Part shown: in pieces, positions 13,293 through 31,915 of the stretch
How positions within the stretch are numbered: the first letter of the stretch is position 1
How the letters are laid out: every line of letters starts with the position of its first letter
IMG/VR virus record: IMGVR_UViG_2563366911_000001
Direction: 5' to 3' (one strand)
From: a virus
Lineage: Duplodnaviria; Heunggongvirae; Uroviricota; Caudoviricetes
DNA length: 64,000 nucleotides
Made by a program: the position numbers and the translations under genes
Notes under the pieces: model-generated
Told to the model about the DNA's origin: nothing
The model's input: only the letters and a program-made list of their open reading frames with translations
Database searches by the model: none

Positions 13293-13612
13293 GCTGATTC
13301 CCCTTTCTCTGCTCTCTCCTGTCGGAACATCACTATCATCAGGTCGCCTTTTGTCGCTATCCTGGCTGTTGTACCTGGTTCAATGCGGCTAAGCTCAAAT
13401 GCGTCATAGAACGCTTCTAATGCCTTCTGGCGTAGTTCCTGTTTGCGCCGTTTTTTCCACTGTTTTAGGAAAATGGAACCCAGCCATCGCCATGTGCGGG
13501 ACATGATGTAAAGCCAACCGAGAAGTGCCAGACCGGTATTTAGGAGCGTATCGATCGTTATTGTCGTGTCGATATTCACTGGCTGCTTCCTTTGCGAATC
13601 TGTTCCGCCCAT
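13289..13612 (-). CDS. Small membrane protein, 107 aa
   Basis: TM segment LLNTGLALLGWLYIM; lies between two Ea22-like genes. Confidence 0.5.
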   Translation of the reverse strand: MGGTDSQRKQPVNIDTTITIDTLLNTGLALLGWLYIMSRTWRWLGSIFLKQWKKRRKQELRQKALEAFYDAFELSRIEPGTTARIATKGDLMIVMFRQERAEKGESA

Positions 13613-14283
13613 TCTTCAAGGGATTTCTCCGCATATTCACCAGACAGGCCATCAATCGGATGCGCTTCATTAGCCAACTCTTCTTTCGCTGACAAAATCA
13701 TGCGTGTAACGTCGAAAACTTCACGCAAAGACTTATTGATAAATCCGTGATTGAACGCAGCAGCAAGACGGCTGGCGGTATAGTTAATCCCCTCGTTGCG
13801 TGCTTCCGCACGAATTTCAGCCAGAAAAGCATCGGTAGCTGGAGTTTCGCTGTGGTGTAGGGCATCGTTGATAATCATTGCAGCAACACCAGCCTGCCCT
13901 GCATCCGTGACCGACACATGCTCAAGAGTTACGGCCATTGCGTGTTTCAGCCCGGCGTTCTCTGCCACCAGCGCAGCGAGATTAGTCTCAAGCTCTGAAA
14001 TTCGGCACGTGGCATCAATATTTGTGTCCTCCAAGCACTTAATTTCACCAAGCAGCTCCAGTGCAACCTTTGGGTTGAACGCGGCAACATGACGAGCGTT
14101 GTTCTCTGCATTTTTCTGTCCATCAAAGCCGGTCCATTTGATAACGTCTTCACATCGTTCATCACCGGGCGTGTGCACCGCATAAGTACCAGTATCCGTC
14201 GAAATAAATGCGACCCATTCGTCTGGTGTTGCCTTTTCTGCCGCCTCACGCAGTACCTGATAGTCAATTGTCATTCTCGCCAT
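13576..14283 (-). CDS. Ead/Ea22-like protein, paralog 3, 235 aa
   Basis: IDYQVLREAAEKATP N-terminus and TDAFLAEIRAEARNEGI block. Confidence 0.65.
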   Translation of the reverse strand: MARMTIDYQVLREAAEKATPDEWVAFISTDTGTYAVHTPGDERCEDVIKWTGFDGQKNAENNARHVAAFNPKVALELLGEIKCLEDTNIDATCRISELETNLAALVAENAGLKHAMAVTLEHVSVTDAGQAGVAAMIINDALHHSETPATDAFLAEIRAEARNEGINYTASRLAAAFNHGFINKSLREVFDVTRMILSAKEELANEAHPIDGLSGEYAEKSLEEWAEQIRKGSSQ

Positions 14284-14915: not shown

Positions 14916-15192
14916 TGGTTGCCTCCGCTTCCCACGTTTTCAGACTTTCACCACAGAACGGGCAAAATGAAACTCGAATAGGCGATTTAGAAAATTCACC
15001 AGACCGCAGCATGATCAGGTCTCGTGAATGAATTAATTCATGGTTATAGATTTTGTATTTCAGCAGACCTTTTCGCGTCGTGTATTCAGCGTCATGCTCC
15101 AGGGATTGTGCCAACGCCGCGCACGGTTCTATCTTGTTGCCATTAATTTGGCATTTTGACTCACTCACTGGTTGCCCCCTGAATACGCTCAA
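14908..15192 (-). CDS. Hypothetical protein, 94 aa
   Basis: ORF with TTG start, CPFCG motif; overlaps the upstream gene by 32 nt. Confidence 0.4.
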   Translation of the reverse strand: MSVFRGQPVSESKCQINGNKIEPCAALAQSLEHDAEYTTRKGLLKYKIYNHELIHSRDLIMLRSGEFSKSPIRVSFCPFCGESLKTWEAEATSE

Positions 15193-15742
15193 ACTCGATT
15201 ACCCACACCCAGGGATTAGCGTTCCAACTATCTTCGCCATAAATTGATTTCCATAGGCTACGGAAACCTGGGTAATGCTTATCGCCAATGAGGGTCGATT
15301 CTGTTGGTGCGCCCTCAGTCCTTGCATCGCATTCGCTGATATCGTTCAACCGCTCAACGCGCACGTTGGTAATTTCCAGAAGAATGCGCGATGCCCAGCG
15401 CGGCATGTGAATTGATGGCGTCCACTTTTCTGATACTGGTTTATTACAAACCTCGACCGGAACCCGGTGCGTTTGTTCTGTCCAGGAGTTACGCACACTT
15501 GCGCGATAAACCAGCGTTGCGACGTCCGTCGCTTTGCCATGTACCCGGTAGGTTTCGCGAACCCAAATACGATCGCCCGGTTGACCATATGGACAATGCT
15601 TGGCAAGCAACTCTGCGGCCACTGCCCGTCCATAGAATTTTTCTTCAACAATCCTGCGAGTCTGTGTTTTATTCCCGCCAAGAATTGCCCGGACCATCTC
15701 ATCGTTAAAAATCATGCCGCGCTCTTTCACTTCGCCTTTCAT
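15161..15742 (-). CDS. Conserved phage protein, 193 aa
   Basis: MIFNDEMVRAILGGNKTQTRR N-terminal signature; tightly coupled to the upstream 28-aa ORF. Confidence 0.65.
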   Translation of the reverse strand: MKGEVKERGMIFNDEMVRAILGGNKTQTRRIVEEKFYGRAVAAELLAKHCPYGQPGDRIWVRETYRVHGKATDVATLVYRASVRNSWTEQTHRVPVEVCNKPVSEKWTPSIHMPRWASRILLEITNVRVERLNDISECDARTEGAPTESTLIGDKHYPGFRSLWKSIYGEDSWNANPWVWVIEFERIQGATSE

Positions 15743-15751
15743 GCATCCCCC

Positions 15752-15838
15752 TTACCCATGTGCGACGATGCCGCCAAAAGTGATAGAGAACAGCCAGAAA
15801 TAGATCGCGGCCATAATGATTTTGAATGCCGTGTTCAT
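15752..15838 (-). CDS. 28-aa hydrophobic peptide (MNTAFKIIMAAIYFWLFSITFGGIVAHG)
   Basis: AGGAG Shine-Dalgarno 9 nt upstream; stop 9 nt before the next ATG; sits just downstream of a C1-operator promoter; below ORF-track cut-off. Confidence 0.35.
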   Translation of the reverse strand: MNTAFKIIMAAIYFWLFSITFGGIVAHG

Positions 15839-15879
15839 ATTTTCAGCTCCTGTGATTGATTGGATACATGCCGCGCCTT

Positions 15880-15936
15880 GCGGCATGTTTTTATTTTCAC
15901 TTTCTCTGTTTTAAAAATCAAGATTTATTAGAGCAA
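15880..15936 (-). promoter_or_regulatory. C1-type operator (ATTGCTCTAATAAATCT, 15920-15936) overlapping a sigma70-like promoter (TTGCTC-17-TAAAAC), then a hairpin
   Basis: 16 of 17 match to operator consensus; -35 lies inside the operator; identical -10 to the 18062-18078 promoter. Confidence 0.55.
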
Positions 15937-16443
15937 TTATTGTTGATGAAGAAGCGCGTTTTCATACTCCCTGACCATTAACGTAAGTACGCCGTGACTC
16001 CTGAAAATACGCGCCACTTCAATCTTATCTTCCAGCGCGAACGCGATTTTACTTAGACCAATTTTCTTAAGGAGATCAATCTTTGCTGGGCCGTCATTTC
16101 TGTCATCGGTGGCAGGACGCATAGATAGCAAAGGCTCAGCCCCGTTTGTTACGTACTTCCGCAGCCAGGCTCGTGTTTTATCCCTTGCGATCTCACAGCG
16201 CCCAGTTACAAACCAGACCGTGTAAACGTTAAATAACTGGCGCACCATATCAATAACTGGAGTGATGGGTGTATCGGTGTCACAGGCGAGATTAAACTCG
16301 TTCCAGTCCTTTGTTAATGCACCTTTACCTGGTGGCGGAAGCAAATGCAGTCTGTCTTCAGTTGCCTCTGATATTGTTCCATCAATATCGACTATGACGA
16401 TATACGGACGTTCCTGGCGTGCGTGTTTATTGAAAATACTCAA
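15937..16443 (-). CDS. HAD-superfamily phosphatase-like protein, 168 aa
   Basis: IVIVDIDGT motif I near the N-terminus, later VTGR and K...D motifs. Confidence 0.7.
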   Translation of the reverse strand: MSIFNKHARQERPYIVIVDIDGTISEATEDRLHLLPPPGKGALTKDWNEFNLACDTDTPITPVIDMVRQLFNVYTVWFVTGRCEIARDKTRAWLRKYVTNGAEPLLSMRPATDDRNDGPAKIDLLKKIGLSKIAFALEDKIEVARIFRSHGVLTLMVREYENALLHQQ

Positions 16444-16467
16444 ATGCCCTCCTCATTGGACGAAAAA

Positions 16468-16496
16468 AATGCTGGTGGGCGCACTCCACCAGCATT
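16468..16496. terminator. Intergenic palindromic hairpin AATGCTGGTGG-gcgcact-CCACCAGCATT containing inverted Chi octamers
   Basis: 11-bp perfect inverted repeat between two minus-strand genes; A-run before, no strong T-tract after. Confidence 0.35.
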
Positions 16497-16515
16497 AAAA
16501 GTGACACTGTAACTA

Positions 16516-17778
16516 TCAGCGGACGTAAATAGTGCCGCCGTTCTCTTTTTCCCATGCATCGCTACGTGCATAGCAAACATCGAGAAGTCTTCTTGCCGCT
16601 GTTTCCTCTAAACCCAATTCGACAACCAACTGCTCATGACGGCGGGTAACCACATCAAACAGGGTATGCAGCCCTTTAGCTGCCAGATCATCAATAAATT
16701 CCGGTTCGAACGGCAGCTCTGCCTCTGCCAACATAACCTCTTGCGCCCACTCAACTCGACGGACTAGTTCCGGGCGGCGGCTTTCCATCTCTTTACAGAT
16801 CAATTCATGGAAGAACTCTACCCAACCTTCCGGCTGGAACTCGCGGAAAATGGCCAACGGCTGGAAGTTTGGCATCAACCATTCGTTGATCCGGATATCA
16901 ATGGCATAGCCCATGTCGCAGCAGAACTGATAAGCAAAGTCCAGCTTAGAAACGATATAAGGACGCTCGTTATTGAACTCTTTAGGCGATGAGATCCCAT
17001 AAGCCAGGAGGCGCGGGAAGAAGGAGATTTGCCCTAACGTCGGATGAAGTTTGCTTGCAGGGAAACGGCGCTCAGTAATGCCATACATTTCCTTCTTGAG
17101 CGTCGCAAATTTGGCATTCTCATTAACCAGCGCGGTAACCTCTGCTTTTTTATTAGCAAATGCCACGCGCGCTTCGCTTGCATCTTTAATAGTTTTTTTG
17201 AGCTGTTGGTTAAGGTCGGCGACCTGCTTACGCAGTTCCTGTCGCTCGCTTTTAGCTTTGTTATAGCGTTTCTCAAGGTTAAAAGGATCAAGTTTCATGA
17301 TCTCTTTATATTGAGATTTTAGCGTTGAAATCTGTGAGTTCCGCAGTTCAACCATCGCGGTCATTTCATTGAGTTTTGTTTCCAGCTCAATGCTTATACG
17401 TTCGGCATTATCAGCACGCTGGTTGGCGTCATGTGTCGCATCGTCGATCGCGTCCTGTTGCTGGCGTTTCAAATGTTCAATTTGCAGCTGAAGCTCTTCA
17501 ATTTCTTTACCCTTCAGACCGAGATCCAACTGCATATTTTCAGCTGCATCTACCAGGGAGTTATGGCTATCAGCTTCTGCGTTATAAACATCAATAAGCT
17601 GTGCGTGAAGCATCTCCGCTGACTGAACCGCATTATCAAAAAAACGTGCTGTGAGGTCATCACAACTAACGCGGCGTTGCGCGGCCCGGATGTTCTGGAT
17701 AATGGCCGGGATACCGGCATTCAGGACGTCAGGGATAGATACATTTTCGATTGATTGGTTTTGTGCTGAAGTGCTCAT
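16516..17778 (-). CDS. Hypothetical protein with long N-terminal coiled coil, 420 aa
   Basis: Heptad-rich region about residues 70-230; C-terminal globular region of unknown fold. Confidence 0.7.
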   Translation of the reverse strand: MSTSAQNQSIENVSIPDVLNAGIPAIIQNIRAAQRRVSCDDLTARFFDNAVQSAEMLHAQLIDVYNAEADSHNSLVDAAENMQLDLGLKGKEIEELQLQIEHLKRQQQDAIDDATHDANQRADNAERISIELETKLNEMTAMVELRNSQISTLKSQYKEIMKLDPFNLEKRYNKAKSERQELRKQVADLNQQLKKTIKDASEARVAFANKKAEVTALVNENAKFATLKKEMYGITERRFPASKLHPTLGQISFFPRLLAYGISSPKEFNNERPYIVSKLDFAYQFCCDMGYAIDIRINEWLMPNFQPLAIFREFQPEGWVEFFHELICKEMESRRPELVRRVEWAQEVMLAEAELPFEPEFIDDLAAKGLHTLFDVVTRRHEQLVVELGLEETAARRLLDVCYARSDAWEKENGGTIYVR

Positions 17779-17779
17779 T

Positions 17780-17998
17780 TCAAAGTTCCGTATTAGCTTG
17801 TGCTTCGGTCATTTTTCCTAAGTATGAAGGTGGAAGGACTACGCAATTTGTATCCAGCCCCTCACCCAGGGCAGCCTGTAAAATTCTGGCTAAGGAGAGT
17901 CTCTTGTTGCGATACCGGGTGATGACATGCCTGATATCGCCGGACGGCGTAACAAAGGCGATCAGCCAGTAGTGATATTTCCGTCGGAATGGCCACAT
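17780..17998 (-). CDS. Small hypothetical protein, 72 aa, first gene of a C1-operator-controlled operon
   Basis: AAGGTG Shine-Dalgarno 5 nt upstream of ATG at 17998. Confidence 0.5.
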   Translation of the reverse strand: MWPFRRKYHYWLIAFVTPSGDIRHVITRYRNKRLSLARILQAALGEGLDTNCVVLPPSYLGKMTEAQANTEL

Positions 17999-18012
17999 AG
18001 TGCACCTTATGG

Positions 18013-18078
18013 ATTGCTCTAATAAAAAACGTGATGAGTGTACATCACGTTTTAAAAATATGGAATTATTAGAGCAAT
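18013..18078. promoter_or_regulatory. Pair of inverted C1-type operators (18013-18029 and 18062-18078) flanking a palindrome; minus-strand promoter TTGCTC-17-TAAAAC
   Basis: ATTGCTCTAATAAAAAA and reverse ATTGCTCTAATAATTCC; central palindrome ACGTGATG-n-CATCACGT. Confidence 0.6.
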
Positions 18079-18079
18079 A

Positions 18080-18781
18080 TTATTCTGATTCTTGCTCAAA
18101 AAACGCGCTAATGAGAGGAAGCCAATCCTCTGACACTTCACGCGGTCGCGGTTTGCCATGGAAGAAGATTATTCGGCAGTCTTTTGGTAATGCCCCATTC
18201 CCCCTGGAGTAGCGCGCACTTGCATATTTCGAACCAGGTTCCACAACATCGGCCTTGTAACTTACAAACCATCCCGGATACAGATCCTGAAATGCTGGTG
18301 TATCATCGCCCATAACCTTCCGTAAGAACCCCTGATCACCCCAGCATTCAGTAGTAACACAACGAGCAATCCAACCTTCCGGATCTTGCCAGAATGCACT
18401 CCAGATATGCGCTTTTACACTATTTGGTATCCACAGGGCACCGCTGCCACGATATTGTGGATGGTAAAAATCCCTAAGCATGGTGAAGCTGGTTGGTGGA
18501 TGCTCTAGGATTGGGCGTATATCACCGGCAATAACCGTGTCCAAATCCAGATAGAACAGATCATCGGTTATATCCGGTCGGAACAACTCTATTTTCGCCC
18601 ACCAGCCACGGCACTTTTGCCACTGGTTGATCAATGGGACAACTTTGACGCCAGGTACATGTAAACGCTTCAGGTCTGTCAGGCAAATAATTTCATAGCC
18701 TTTTGGCAGTTGATTAACCAGCCACTGCACATCGGAAGCGTTATAGTCACCACCAGAGCGAAAAACTAAAGCAATCTTCAT
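18080..18781 (-). CDS. Putative GT-A-like nucleotide-sugar transferase, 233 aa
   Basis: DxD-like [12 protein letters not shown] motif in an alpha/beta context; assignment tentative. Confidence 0.5.
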
Positions 18782-31363: not shown

Positions 31364-31439
31364 AAACCGGCATTGGCGATGGTGGATGGATTTGAACCAT
31401 CGACCCGTTGATTAACAGTCAACCGCTCTAACCGCTGAG
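31364..31439 (-). tRNA. tRNA-Asn (GUU)
   Basis: 76 nt, anticodon loop CTGTTAA, GGTTCAAATCC T-arm, encoded CCA; 2-nt spacer to tRNA-Thr. Confidence 0.85.
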
Positions 31440-31915
31440 CTACACCATCACTTGCCGGGTACGTCTCCGGCGAGGGCTTCCACCTCCGTATGCTTTTCGG
31501 CGCACCGCGCCCTGGCTGCAATTCGGTAACAGGGGATGCACAACCCTGGCTTCCAGCGTGATTAGCGCCTTCAGCATGACGGGATATACCCGTAAATTCG
31601 TGGAACTGTACCCAAAGTGCTGTTAAGCACCGCTGTTACGCTGAAAAGAAAACGCAACAGGAAAGGACGCTGACCAACAGATGGCCCCTTCTCGTTCATC
31701 TGGTTAATCACACCAGCGCCCTTACCTGTTGTGCCTCCCCGTTCCCTAATACACAGACGGGGACACTCTGCGGTCGATTTTTTTGACGGGGGACGACTCA
31801 TACCCCGTGGCATCTGGTTTCTTAGGCCGCTACCATCATCAGATCATCGTTTGCATTTACTTTAATGGTCAGTTTCTAAACCGCCGCAAAGTCGCTAACC
31901 ATGACGAAAACCCTG

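Follow-up and report, generated by a model that had tools for sequence, protein, structure and literature searches.

The pmgR-pmgS-pap segment of a P7-like plasmid prophage: domain anatomy, predicted early control and a probable small hydrophobic peptide gene

The stretch of viral DNA described here is IMG/VR record IMGVR_UViG_2563366911_000001 (Caudoviricetes; 64,000 nucleotides (nt), referred to as a whole as the window). Between positions 15,752 and 17,998 it carries a run of minus-strand genes which, judging from alignment, is the annotated pmgR-pmgS-pap segment of a P7-like plasmid prophage of the P1 family, together with the first part of the operon that follows. This is a known locus, whose genes, operators and operon structure have long been part of the P1 and P7 reference annotations, and the discovery value is therefore small. 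The additions are refinements, namely the domain anatomy and genomic context of PmgS, the recognition of Pap as a phosphatase without a kinase, a conserved terminator, and a selected but unannotated small gene with a mosaic junction next to it.

Positions 15400-18300 align end to end with phage P7 (AF503408) at 98.4% identity. The alignment with P1 (AF234172/3) runs from 15687 upward at about 97.5% identity; below 15687, the arrangement is that of P7 (upf86.8) and not that of P1 (pmgT). With a constant offset of +12686, the features of the P1 record (L001) coincide base for base with those read in the initial annotation, and the four minus-strand open reading frames (ORFs) it had claimed, encoding a protein of 72 amino acids (aa), one of 420 aa, a HAD phosphatase and a peptide of 28 aa, are all present at its coordinates, in a tightly packed minus-strand string spanning 15100-18800. 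In P7, whose annotated features coincide equally well, shtA and shtB stand for pmgR and pmgS, pap keeps its name, and the operators are called Op(sht) and Op(hea). A scan of genome contigs with the Pap alignment found 3 loci; a scan of viral contigs found 80, each of them at least 92% identical. PADLOC and NCBIfam gave no match for PmgR, Pap or Upf86.8, and an Rfam scan of 15000-18600 returned sub-threshold noise only.

The control of the locus can be followed from its operators. All three local sites, at 18062-18078 (minus strand), 18013-18029 (plus strand) and 15921-15937 (minus strand), share the core ATTGCTCTAATAA and match the 17-bp asymmetric operator consensus ATTGCTCTAATAAATTT, and their positions are those of annotated protein_bind features of P1 and P7. 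With up to three mismatches allowed, the 17-mer has 10 sites in the window against 0.32 expected, and none of 100 shuffles reached 10. The repressor operators that had been recognised from the letters alone correspond to known elements: the pair is the annotated Op86a/b and the second operator is Op88. Op86a (OpmgRa, or Op(sht[a]) in P7; ATTGCTCTAATAATTCC) lies at 18062..18078 on the minus strand, which is 5376-5392 in L001. Op86b (OpmgRb) is inverted, at 18013..18029 on the plus strand, 15 nt upstream of the pmgR ATG. Op88 (OpmgT, or Op(hea) in P7; ATTGCTCTAATAAATCT) occupies 15921..15937 on the minus strand, and its first base is the last base of the pap stop codon. The notes on C1 control in the P1 record refer back to earlier deposited operator sequences. 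No literature on Op88 or pmgT dealing with this locus was found.

According to the P1 record, the predicted promoter PpmgR has its -35 hexamer (TTGCTC, 18077-18072) inside Op86a and its -10 hexamer (TAAAAC) at 18054-18049. Two predicted sigma-70 promoters of the next operon, placed with the same offset, cover 15893..15936 on the minus strand: P2pmgT, with TTGCTC at 15936-15931 and TAAAAC at 15913-15908, and P1pmgT, with TTGATT at 15921-15916 and GAAAAT at 15898-15893. The pmgT promoter blocks are kept in four other lineages. A generic sigma-70 consensus scan, as a point on the other side, called neither annotated promoter; hence, the predicted promoter function rests on the P1 record and on the conservation of the hexamers in relatives. 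Control by late promoters was considered and rejected: the -22 box AAGTTACTT, taken from the annotated LPhot, does not occur in 15000-19000 with one mismatch or fewer. The presence of C1 operators and the lack of such a box in this interval mark the segment, by sequence, as an early, repressor-controlled unit.

Within this unit, the extent of the first transcript had to be revised. The initial annotation described one operator-driven operon running from pmgR through pmgS to the phosphatase gene. This holds for pmgR and pmgS, but the membership of pap was overstated, as a strong intrinsic terminator, which three other lineages have kept, intervenes. It lies at 16461..16496 on the minus strand, with an 11-bp GC-rich stem at 16496-16468 and a run of seven T at 16467-16461, and folds at -18.1 kcal/mol (z = -5.3 against shuffles). 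The same annotation had described it as a palindromic hairpin containing Chi. Indeed, the hairpin carries Chi (GCTGGTGG) on both strands, at 16493-16486 on the minus and 16471-16478 on the plus strand. In the relatives L006, L092 and L095, however, a hairpin with a T-run is kept between pmgS and pap with a different stem sequence; Chi is found on both strands in P1 and P7 only, and on one strand in L095. A functional part of Chi in the terminator was therefore rejected: the terminator is the conserved feature and Chi is incidental. As the P1 record also limits the control by Op86 to pmgR and pmgS, pap is at best a read-through member of the operon, and its expression would have to depend on read-through or on an unrecognised promoter. 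An RNA-seq preprint fits this simple model poorly, as pmgS and pap move together, apart from pmgR, in an hfq deletion. In the relative L005, there is no terminator; pmgR, pmgS, an Rv2179c-like 3'-5' exonuclease gene, a 101-aa ORF and pap, as the last gene, are contiguous.

Taken together with the P1 and P7 records, these features allow a sequence of events to be proposed. In the lysogen, C1 bound to Op86a/b and Op88 would block two sigma-70 promoters, which have their -35 hexamers within or beside these operators. After derepression, PpmgR would transcribe pmgR and pmgS; most transcripts would stop at the conserved terminator behind pmgS, and read-through would supply pap. The Op88 promoter would give a second transcript, with a stabilising hairpin at its 5' end and a conserved AATCAATCA-GGAG leader, from which the 28-aa membrane peptide would be translated. 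The conserved spacing and overlap suggest that termination on this peptide gene is coupled to initiation on the cargo gene that follows.

Two further hairpins belong to this region. A stable hairpin (AAAACGUGAUG...CAUCACGUUUU, flanked by an A-run and a T-run) at 18026..18053 on the minus strand stands between the -10 hexamer of PpmgR and Op86b. It folds at -13.4 kcal/mol (z -5.3) and is probably a terminator, possibly bidirectional, with which the ppp-pmgQ operon upstream ends and which overlaps the promoter that follows. A comparable overlap was seen in L005 and L011, where a terminator overlaps the Op88-type promoter. The other hairpin, at 15866..15888 on the minus strand, has a 9-bp GC-rich stem (-16.3 kcal/mol, z -4.3) and lies where the Op88 transcript is predicted to begin; hairpins of different sequence occupy the same leader position in L093, L006, L092 and L095. 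On the plus strand, the hairpin precedes TTTTATTTT and was called as an intrinsic terminator, so that it might mark the end of an antisense RNA. Around 15866-15888, plus-strand genes and promoters were neither seen nor called, the T-run is not conserved in other lineages, and Rfam gave no match; a type I toxin or antisense RNA reading of this hairpin is not supported by conservation.

The small gene at the head of the Op88 operon is the feature that the reference annotations lack. It is a 28-codon ORF at 15752..15838 on the minus strand, preceded by AGGAG 8 nt upstream, and encodes a predicted single-helix hydrophobic peptide (MNTAFKIIMAAIYFWLFSITFGGIVAHG). A gap of 9 nt separates its stop codon from the ATG at 15742 that starts the next gene; on this spacing, the initial annotation had based a coupling of the two genes. 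The copies of P1 and P7 differ by one synonymous change only. Homologs of 48-65 aa are found at the same position. Four further lineages carry one there, with operator, -35, -10, hairpin and AATCAATCA-GGAG leader in like order before it. The homolog in L093 has 65 aa (MNTAFKLAMAAFYFWIFCIAFNGLV...), and those in L006, L095 and L092 have 53 aa (MQVLIKLAVTAFFVWLFTVAVTSFKPD...). The hydrophobic helix is kept, with K6, A11 and W15 invariant; the start is conserved only for the codon with the Shine-Dalgarno sequence, and the junction with the next gene is conserved either as a 9-nt gap or as an ATGA/GTGA overlap. Uncorrected proportions of non-synonymous and synonymous differences (pN/pS) are 0.20/0.85 between P1 and L093 and 0.03/0.53 between L006 and L095. 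Conservation had been named beforehand as a point on which the proposal of this ORF could fail, and homologs at the same position under purifying selection were found. On account of the homologs, the pN/pS values and the conserved start and coupling, the ORF is judged to be a real gene under purifying selection that encodes a single hydrophobic helix.

Automatic annotations contain the ORF in many cases, as a 'membrane protein' or 'hypothetical', mostly with 44 aa. This longer reading was rejected, as its ATG is part of the hairpin, lacks a Shine-Dalgarno sequence and occurs in the P1 lineage only. No Pfam, PHROG or Rfam match to the small peptide was obtained.

Three observations count against a strictly essential role of the peptide. 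Within the P1 lineage, about five non-synonymous variants (A10S/T, G22C/D/S) stand against three synonymous ones. The C-terminal tails are highly variable, and some copies are fused to DUF551. Among P0189-P0200, for instance, at least eight different tails follow ...IVAHG, with in-frame DUF551 fusions in P0197 and P0200, and such fusions imply that recombination at the junction sometimes removes the stop codon. Finally, the ORF is absent from L005, L011 and L008, which keep the leader and have a helix-turn-helix protein gene as the first gene. These three points also agree, as does the tight coupling to the next gene, with a 28-codon ORF that has no peptide function, being either a translated leader through which the mRNA is opened and ribosomes are passed on to the cargo genes, or an ORF that arose by chance within a conserved 5' leader. 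We regard this as doubtful, though by no means negligible, since purifying selection acts between lineages, and a pure coupler needs no transmembrane sequence, let alone a helix with K6, A11 and W15 retained. The preferred reading is a genuine protein, which, as far as its conservation can tell, would be either membrane-acting or mainly a translational coupler for variable cargo.

The small gene is followed by a mosaic junction (15748..15751), where homology to many P1-like elements ends and the hypervariable region H starts. In 26 of the 86 aligned loci, homology breaks at 15748, 4 nt after the stop codon. In a comparison of 77 P1-like phage-plasmids, pmgR and pmgS were within the 21 most conserved genes, and the part from pmgT to humD was a hypervariable region (PMC9603915). 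The locus thus straddles the border between conserved core and cargo region, with the small ORF as the last conserved element. The cargo gene in the window is the P7-type upf86.8 (15161..15742, minus strand, 193 aa), which belongs to PHROG 874 and has no Pfam match; P1 has pmgT at this position, and only the first codons are common to both. An Ead/Ea22-like protein (window 13576-14283, Pfam E 4e-24) is encoded further downstream in the P7-type cargo region. With upf86.8, it indicates that the variable region holds lambdoid-type early accessory genes.

In one junction class, the alternative cargo is a convergent type I hsdR gene (L040 4696-7948). About 280 plasmids, largely IncF, carry 84 bp of the small ORF (window 15748-15831; 3501-3584 in L003/L004) between an IS1 copy and the same hsdR. 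These matches were rejected as independent copies of the small gene: they are relics truncated by IS1 beside the convergent hsdR, and they explain the similarity notes in the P1 record. The occurrence of the same hsdR after an intact small ORF in some P1-like phage-plasmids and at the IncF relic points to an exchange of restriction modules with conjugative plasmids.

PmgS (P7 ShtB; 16516..17778, minus strand; PHROG 1660) is the 420-aa protein for which a long coiled coil and an unrecognised C-terminal domain had been claimed. A full-length AlphaFold model bears out the coiled coil, with helices at 15-34, 41-160 and 167-232; the helix break falls on an invariant K-x4-LDP motif, which has the family-wide form (L/M)(D/E)P(E/D). 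The protein consists of a conserved N-terminal helix (RRVxCDDLxxRFF), the helical hairpin, a beta/alpha middle domain (about aa 250-350) and a C-terminal tandem helix-hairpin-helix domain, (HhH)2. A model of aa 220-420 based on 30 diverse sequences reached a predicted local distance difference test (pLDDT) score of 90.5 and a predicted template modelling (pTM) score of 0.84. The claim of an unrecognised C-terminus holds for the middle domain, which matched nothing in the PDB or BFVD, but not for the last 60 or so residues. These form the (HhH)2 domain (about aa 352-412, 16543..16725 on the minus strand), which resembles the N-terminal domain of Rad51/RadA/RAD51C. Both profile and fold match, and two consecutive helix-hairpin-helix motifs are present. 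In the profile search against PDB sequences, the RAD51 N-terminal domain scored E 1.5e-7, the C-terminal domain of the RNA polymerase alpha subunit 2.8e-5 and NusA 6.8e-5. Distant members of the family match Pfam HHH_5 and have kept the canonical GIG hairpin. Weak matches of PmgS in PADLOC and NCBIfam (LmuB, JetC, SMC, Rad50) lie in the coiled coil and were set aside as compositional.

A word-indexed search with PmgS returned P1-like relatives only. An exhaustive profile search with its C-terminal half returned 99 cluster representatives, mostly of 350-470 aa, alike in layout and matching at the C-terminus. All 99 belong to PHROG 1660 ('PmgS-like head morphogenesis'), a name merely copied from the P1 label. 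The genomic contexts of the distant members are varied. In a lambdoid prophage, the pmgS-like gene belongs to the early-left operon, where genes for RecT and a YqaJ-type exonuclease immediately precede it. On a TrfA-type element, its neighbour is an Rv2179c-like exonuclease gene (L098 8258-9070). A third lies in a nin-like region, surrounded by NUDIX, DUF4942, DUF3850 and NinX genes and upstream of a terminase gene, and another has integrase and HU genes next to it. No pmgR gene stands beside the distant members in these contexts. Genes for Rv2179c-like 3'-5' exonucleases thus occur near pmgS-like genes in two unrelated settings, the second being the P1-like L005 (4135-4683). Many of the distant proteins (e.g., P0069, P0076, P0077, P0078, P0091 and P0097) end in ...AA (HSEAA, REAA, EKAA, QTAA), which recalls degradation tags of the ssrA type; in P1/P7, the C-terminal residues are ...IYVR.

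PmgR (P7 ShtA; 72 aa; 17780..17998, minus strand; PHROG 3177) has neither a Pfam match nor a PDB sequence match. Its homologs (72-76 aa) lie immediately 5' of pmgS in all P1-like loci examined, even where PmgS is at 27% identity. A pmgR knockout gave unjoined heads and tails and was complemented in trans; PmgR is needed for infectious virions but was not detected in them (PMC9024508).

The position of the distant PmgS genes in early contexts without PmgR, together with the dispensability of pmgS (listed with pap as dispensable in a table of PMC10695390), favours an accessory role early in infection. We consider that there is about an even chance that PmgS is a coiled-coil dimer that binds DNA as an accessory protein of the early programme, and probably no part of the virion. 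The names given to these proteins speak for something else, namely that PmgR and PmgS are morphogenetic or virion proteins: P1 has 'putative morphogenetic function', and the P7 names ShtA and ShtB stand for sheath assembly and contraction. The pmgR knockout phenotype agrees with this, as do the constant association of PmgR with PmgS in P1-like genomes and their shared place among the most conserved genes. For PmgS, however, neither a requirement, nor presence in the virion, nor a place in a late structural module was found. Neither the text nor the tables of PMC9024508 name it as a virion protein, its operon has C1 operators and no late-promoter box, its distant relatives are encoded in early recombination, nin-like or plasmid-like regions, and its make-up is that of a DNA-binding (HhH)2 domain with a coiled coil. 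A morphogenetic role is thus unlikely. Two points, beyond the names, remain to be set against an early DNA-binding role: an early, repressor-controlled pmgR that is needed for head-tail joining is left unexplained by it, and the confidently modelled middle domain of PmgS has no match in the PDB or BFVD.

A wider scheme can be formulated, in which PmgS would stand for an unrecognised family of phage and plasmid proteins, with an antiparallel coiled coil and its conserved LDP apex, a new beta/alpha domain and (HhH)2. This family would bind DNA ends or recombination intermediates together with exonucleases or recombinases (RecT/YqaJ, Rv2179c-like) and, in P1, with Pap, as an early module for DNA-end processing or nuclease evasion. 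Separately, the 28-aa peptide would be a conserved 'adaptor gene', with one repressor-controlled promoter and leader, interchangeable cargo and a recombination hotspot after its stop. The scheme is rather improbable.

The gene pap (15937..16443, minus strand; 168 aa; PHROG 415) has a TTG start behind GAGGAGGG. The HAD phosphatase call is upheld and can be narrowed to the family of PNKP-type nucleic-acid 3'-phosphatases, as the protein matches Pfam HAD_PNKP (PF25109) with 45.8 bits against a curated cut-off of 27.6 (E 9e-12). Across 11 sequences, its four catalytic motifs (D19-x-D21-G-T, T80-G-R82, K121 and E138-D139) vary little or not at all. The family profile finds Pnkp1 (3.3e-6), the T4 phosphatase domain 5uj0 (1.1e-5) and residues 183-292 of T4 Pnk 1ltq (8.3e-5); in the alignment to T4 Pnk, SGR pairs with the TGR of Pap and D-D with E-D. 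Relatives are present in 1185 phage records, mostly as stand-alone genes mislabelled 'polynucleotide kinase'. No biochemical report on P1 Pap was found among the papers covered by the search. From its family and motifs, Pap is somewhat favoured to be a 3'-phosphatase that depends on magnesium and has the ends of DNA or RNA, or 3'-nucleotides, as its substrates, i.e., an end-healing enzyme and not a complete repair system; the E-D in place of D-D in motif IV speaks against this.

The initial annotation had gone further and linked the phosphatase, through the tRNA genes of the phage, to RNA repair. In this interpretation, Pap would be the healing half of a T4-like system by which tRNAs of the phage or its host are restored after cleavage by anticodon nucleases. 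Three tRNA genes are indeed present in the window (Met/CAT, i.e., with a CAT anticodon, Thr-TGT and Asn-GTT; 29221-29296 and 31296-31449), which we take to correspond in type to trnI, trnT and trnA of P1. The phosphatase domains of T4 Pnkp and Pnkp1, the latter from a bacterial RNA-repair complex, are homologs of Pap, and in L005 the gene for the Rv2179c-like protein, which is exoribonuclease-like (E 3e-50), lies two genes upstream of pap in the same string. The tRNA genes are, however, 13-15 kb away from pap and in another operon. Neither a 5'-kinase domain nor a separate polynucleotide kinase, as T4-type repair needs, was found: the 168 aa of Pap contain the phosphatase domain only, and tblastn detected no homolog of the T1 kinase in the window (best E 0.9). 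The annotations of P1 and P7 are not known to include an RNA ligase, and no search for one was made. If a 3'-phosphate is removed and the 5' end is not phosphorylated, the resulting 3'-OH/5'-OH ends can be joined by neither RtcB nor ATP-dependent ligases. On laboratory hosts, neither knockout nor knock-down of pap had a plaque phenotype (PMC10695390), and a literature search on phage tRNA repair gave nothing on this locus. The proposed link is accordingly not borne out, and RNA repair of this type is very unlikely.

Some of the neighbouring genes would rather suggest that Pap is a phosphatase for small molecules, sugar phosphates or nucleotides, in a glycosylation or sugar-nucleotide neighbourhood. 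In L008, pap directly follows a gene for a CTP_transf_3 cytidylyltransferase, the PHROG to which PmgQ, encoded just upstream, belongs is named glycosyltransferase, and a relative of the upstream pmgO/pmgP has a faint MptE-like match. The T4 enzyme, moreover, also hydrolyses 3'-dNMPs. On the other hand, the sequence family of Pap is specifically HAD_PNKP, the contextual matches are weak or confined to a single locus, and P1 and P7 have no cytidylyltransferase, which makes a small-molecule role quite unlikely; a 3'-phosphatase for nucleic-acid ends or 3'-nucleotides remains the favoured assignment. The genes upstream of the locus (window 18080-20638; pmgQ, ppp, pmgP and pmgO) show hints of a sugar-transfer theme in their own right. 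The faint MptE-like (DUF115) match of the pmgO/pmgP relative is that of L005 38-604, both of these proteins in the window have GSGPS motifs, and cytidylyltransferase genes were observed near pap in distant relatives (L007 10588-11352 and L008 10460-11227).

The practical consequences concern annotation and the tracing of gene exchange. The database label 'morphogenetic' or 'head morphogenesis' for PmgS-like proteins is probably wrong, as PmgS looks like an early DNA-binding protein, and the label 'polynucleotide kinase' for Pap-like proteins is probably wrong as well, Pap being a phosphatase without a kinase. The reference annotations of P1 and P7 lack the gene for the putative, selected membrane peptide at the head of the Op88 operon, and many pipelines use the wrong 44-aa start. 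The junction 4 nt past the small gene gives the boundary between the conserved core and the hypervariable region H in P1-like phage-plasmids, and the 84-bp junction relic by type I restriction genes on IncF plasmids is useful to trace module exchange between phage-plasmids and conjugative plasmids.

Compared with known systems, the segment is closest to its counterparts in the reference phages. P1 pmgR-pmgS-pap and P7 shtA-shtB-pap are the same locus, with gene order, gene lengths, operator positions and terminator shared; the difference from our reading is that both records leave the 28-aa ORF unannotated. With its 28 aa, its single hydrophobic helix and its predicted repression in the lysogen, the small peptide resembles type I toxins and the small hydrophobic peptides of phages and prophages. 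TisB, ShoB and Ibs are examples of small hydrophobic peptides. As to the RNA, no conserved antisense RNA was found, and the terminator-like hairpin on the plus strand is specific to the P1 lineage.

The (HhH)2 domain of PmgS is like the N-terminal domain of Rad51/RadA/RAD51C, but it comes without the ATPase core and is located at the C-terminus, behind a coiled coil and an unmatched middle domain. It also resembles the C-terminal domain of RNA polymerase alpha and the AR domains of NusA. The P1 copy has lost the canonical GIG hairpin, whereas its distant relatives retain it.

As for Pap, it belongs to the same HAD family as T4 Pnkp (1ltq, 5uj0) and bacterial Pnkp1 (4xrp), and DxDGT, (S/T)GR, the Lys motif and the acidic pair can be aligned. 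It differs from these enzymes in that it stands alone, without a kinase domain or a ligase partner (RNA ligase was not searched for), and has E-D in motif IV. Phage T1 (L104 2444-4030) has a split Pnkp, in which a homing endonuclease gene stands between the phosphatase gene and a gene of its own for a 'putative kinase'; such a kinase is lacking in the window. Pap is most similar in form to the stand-alone PNKP-like phosphatases of T1-like phages, Webervirus and other phages (PHROG 415), which have about 140-180 aa and 30-40% identity and share with it an 'RLHLLP' segment after motif I.

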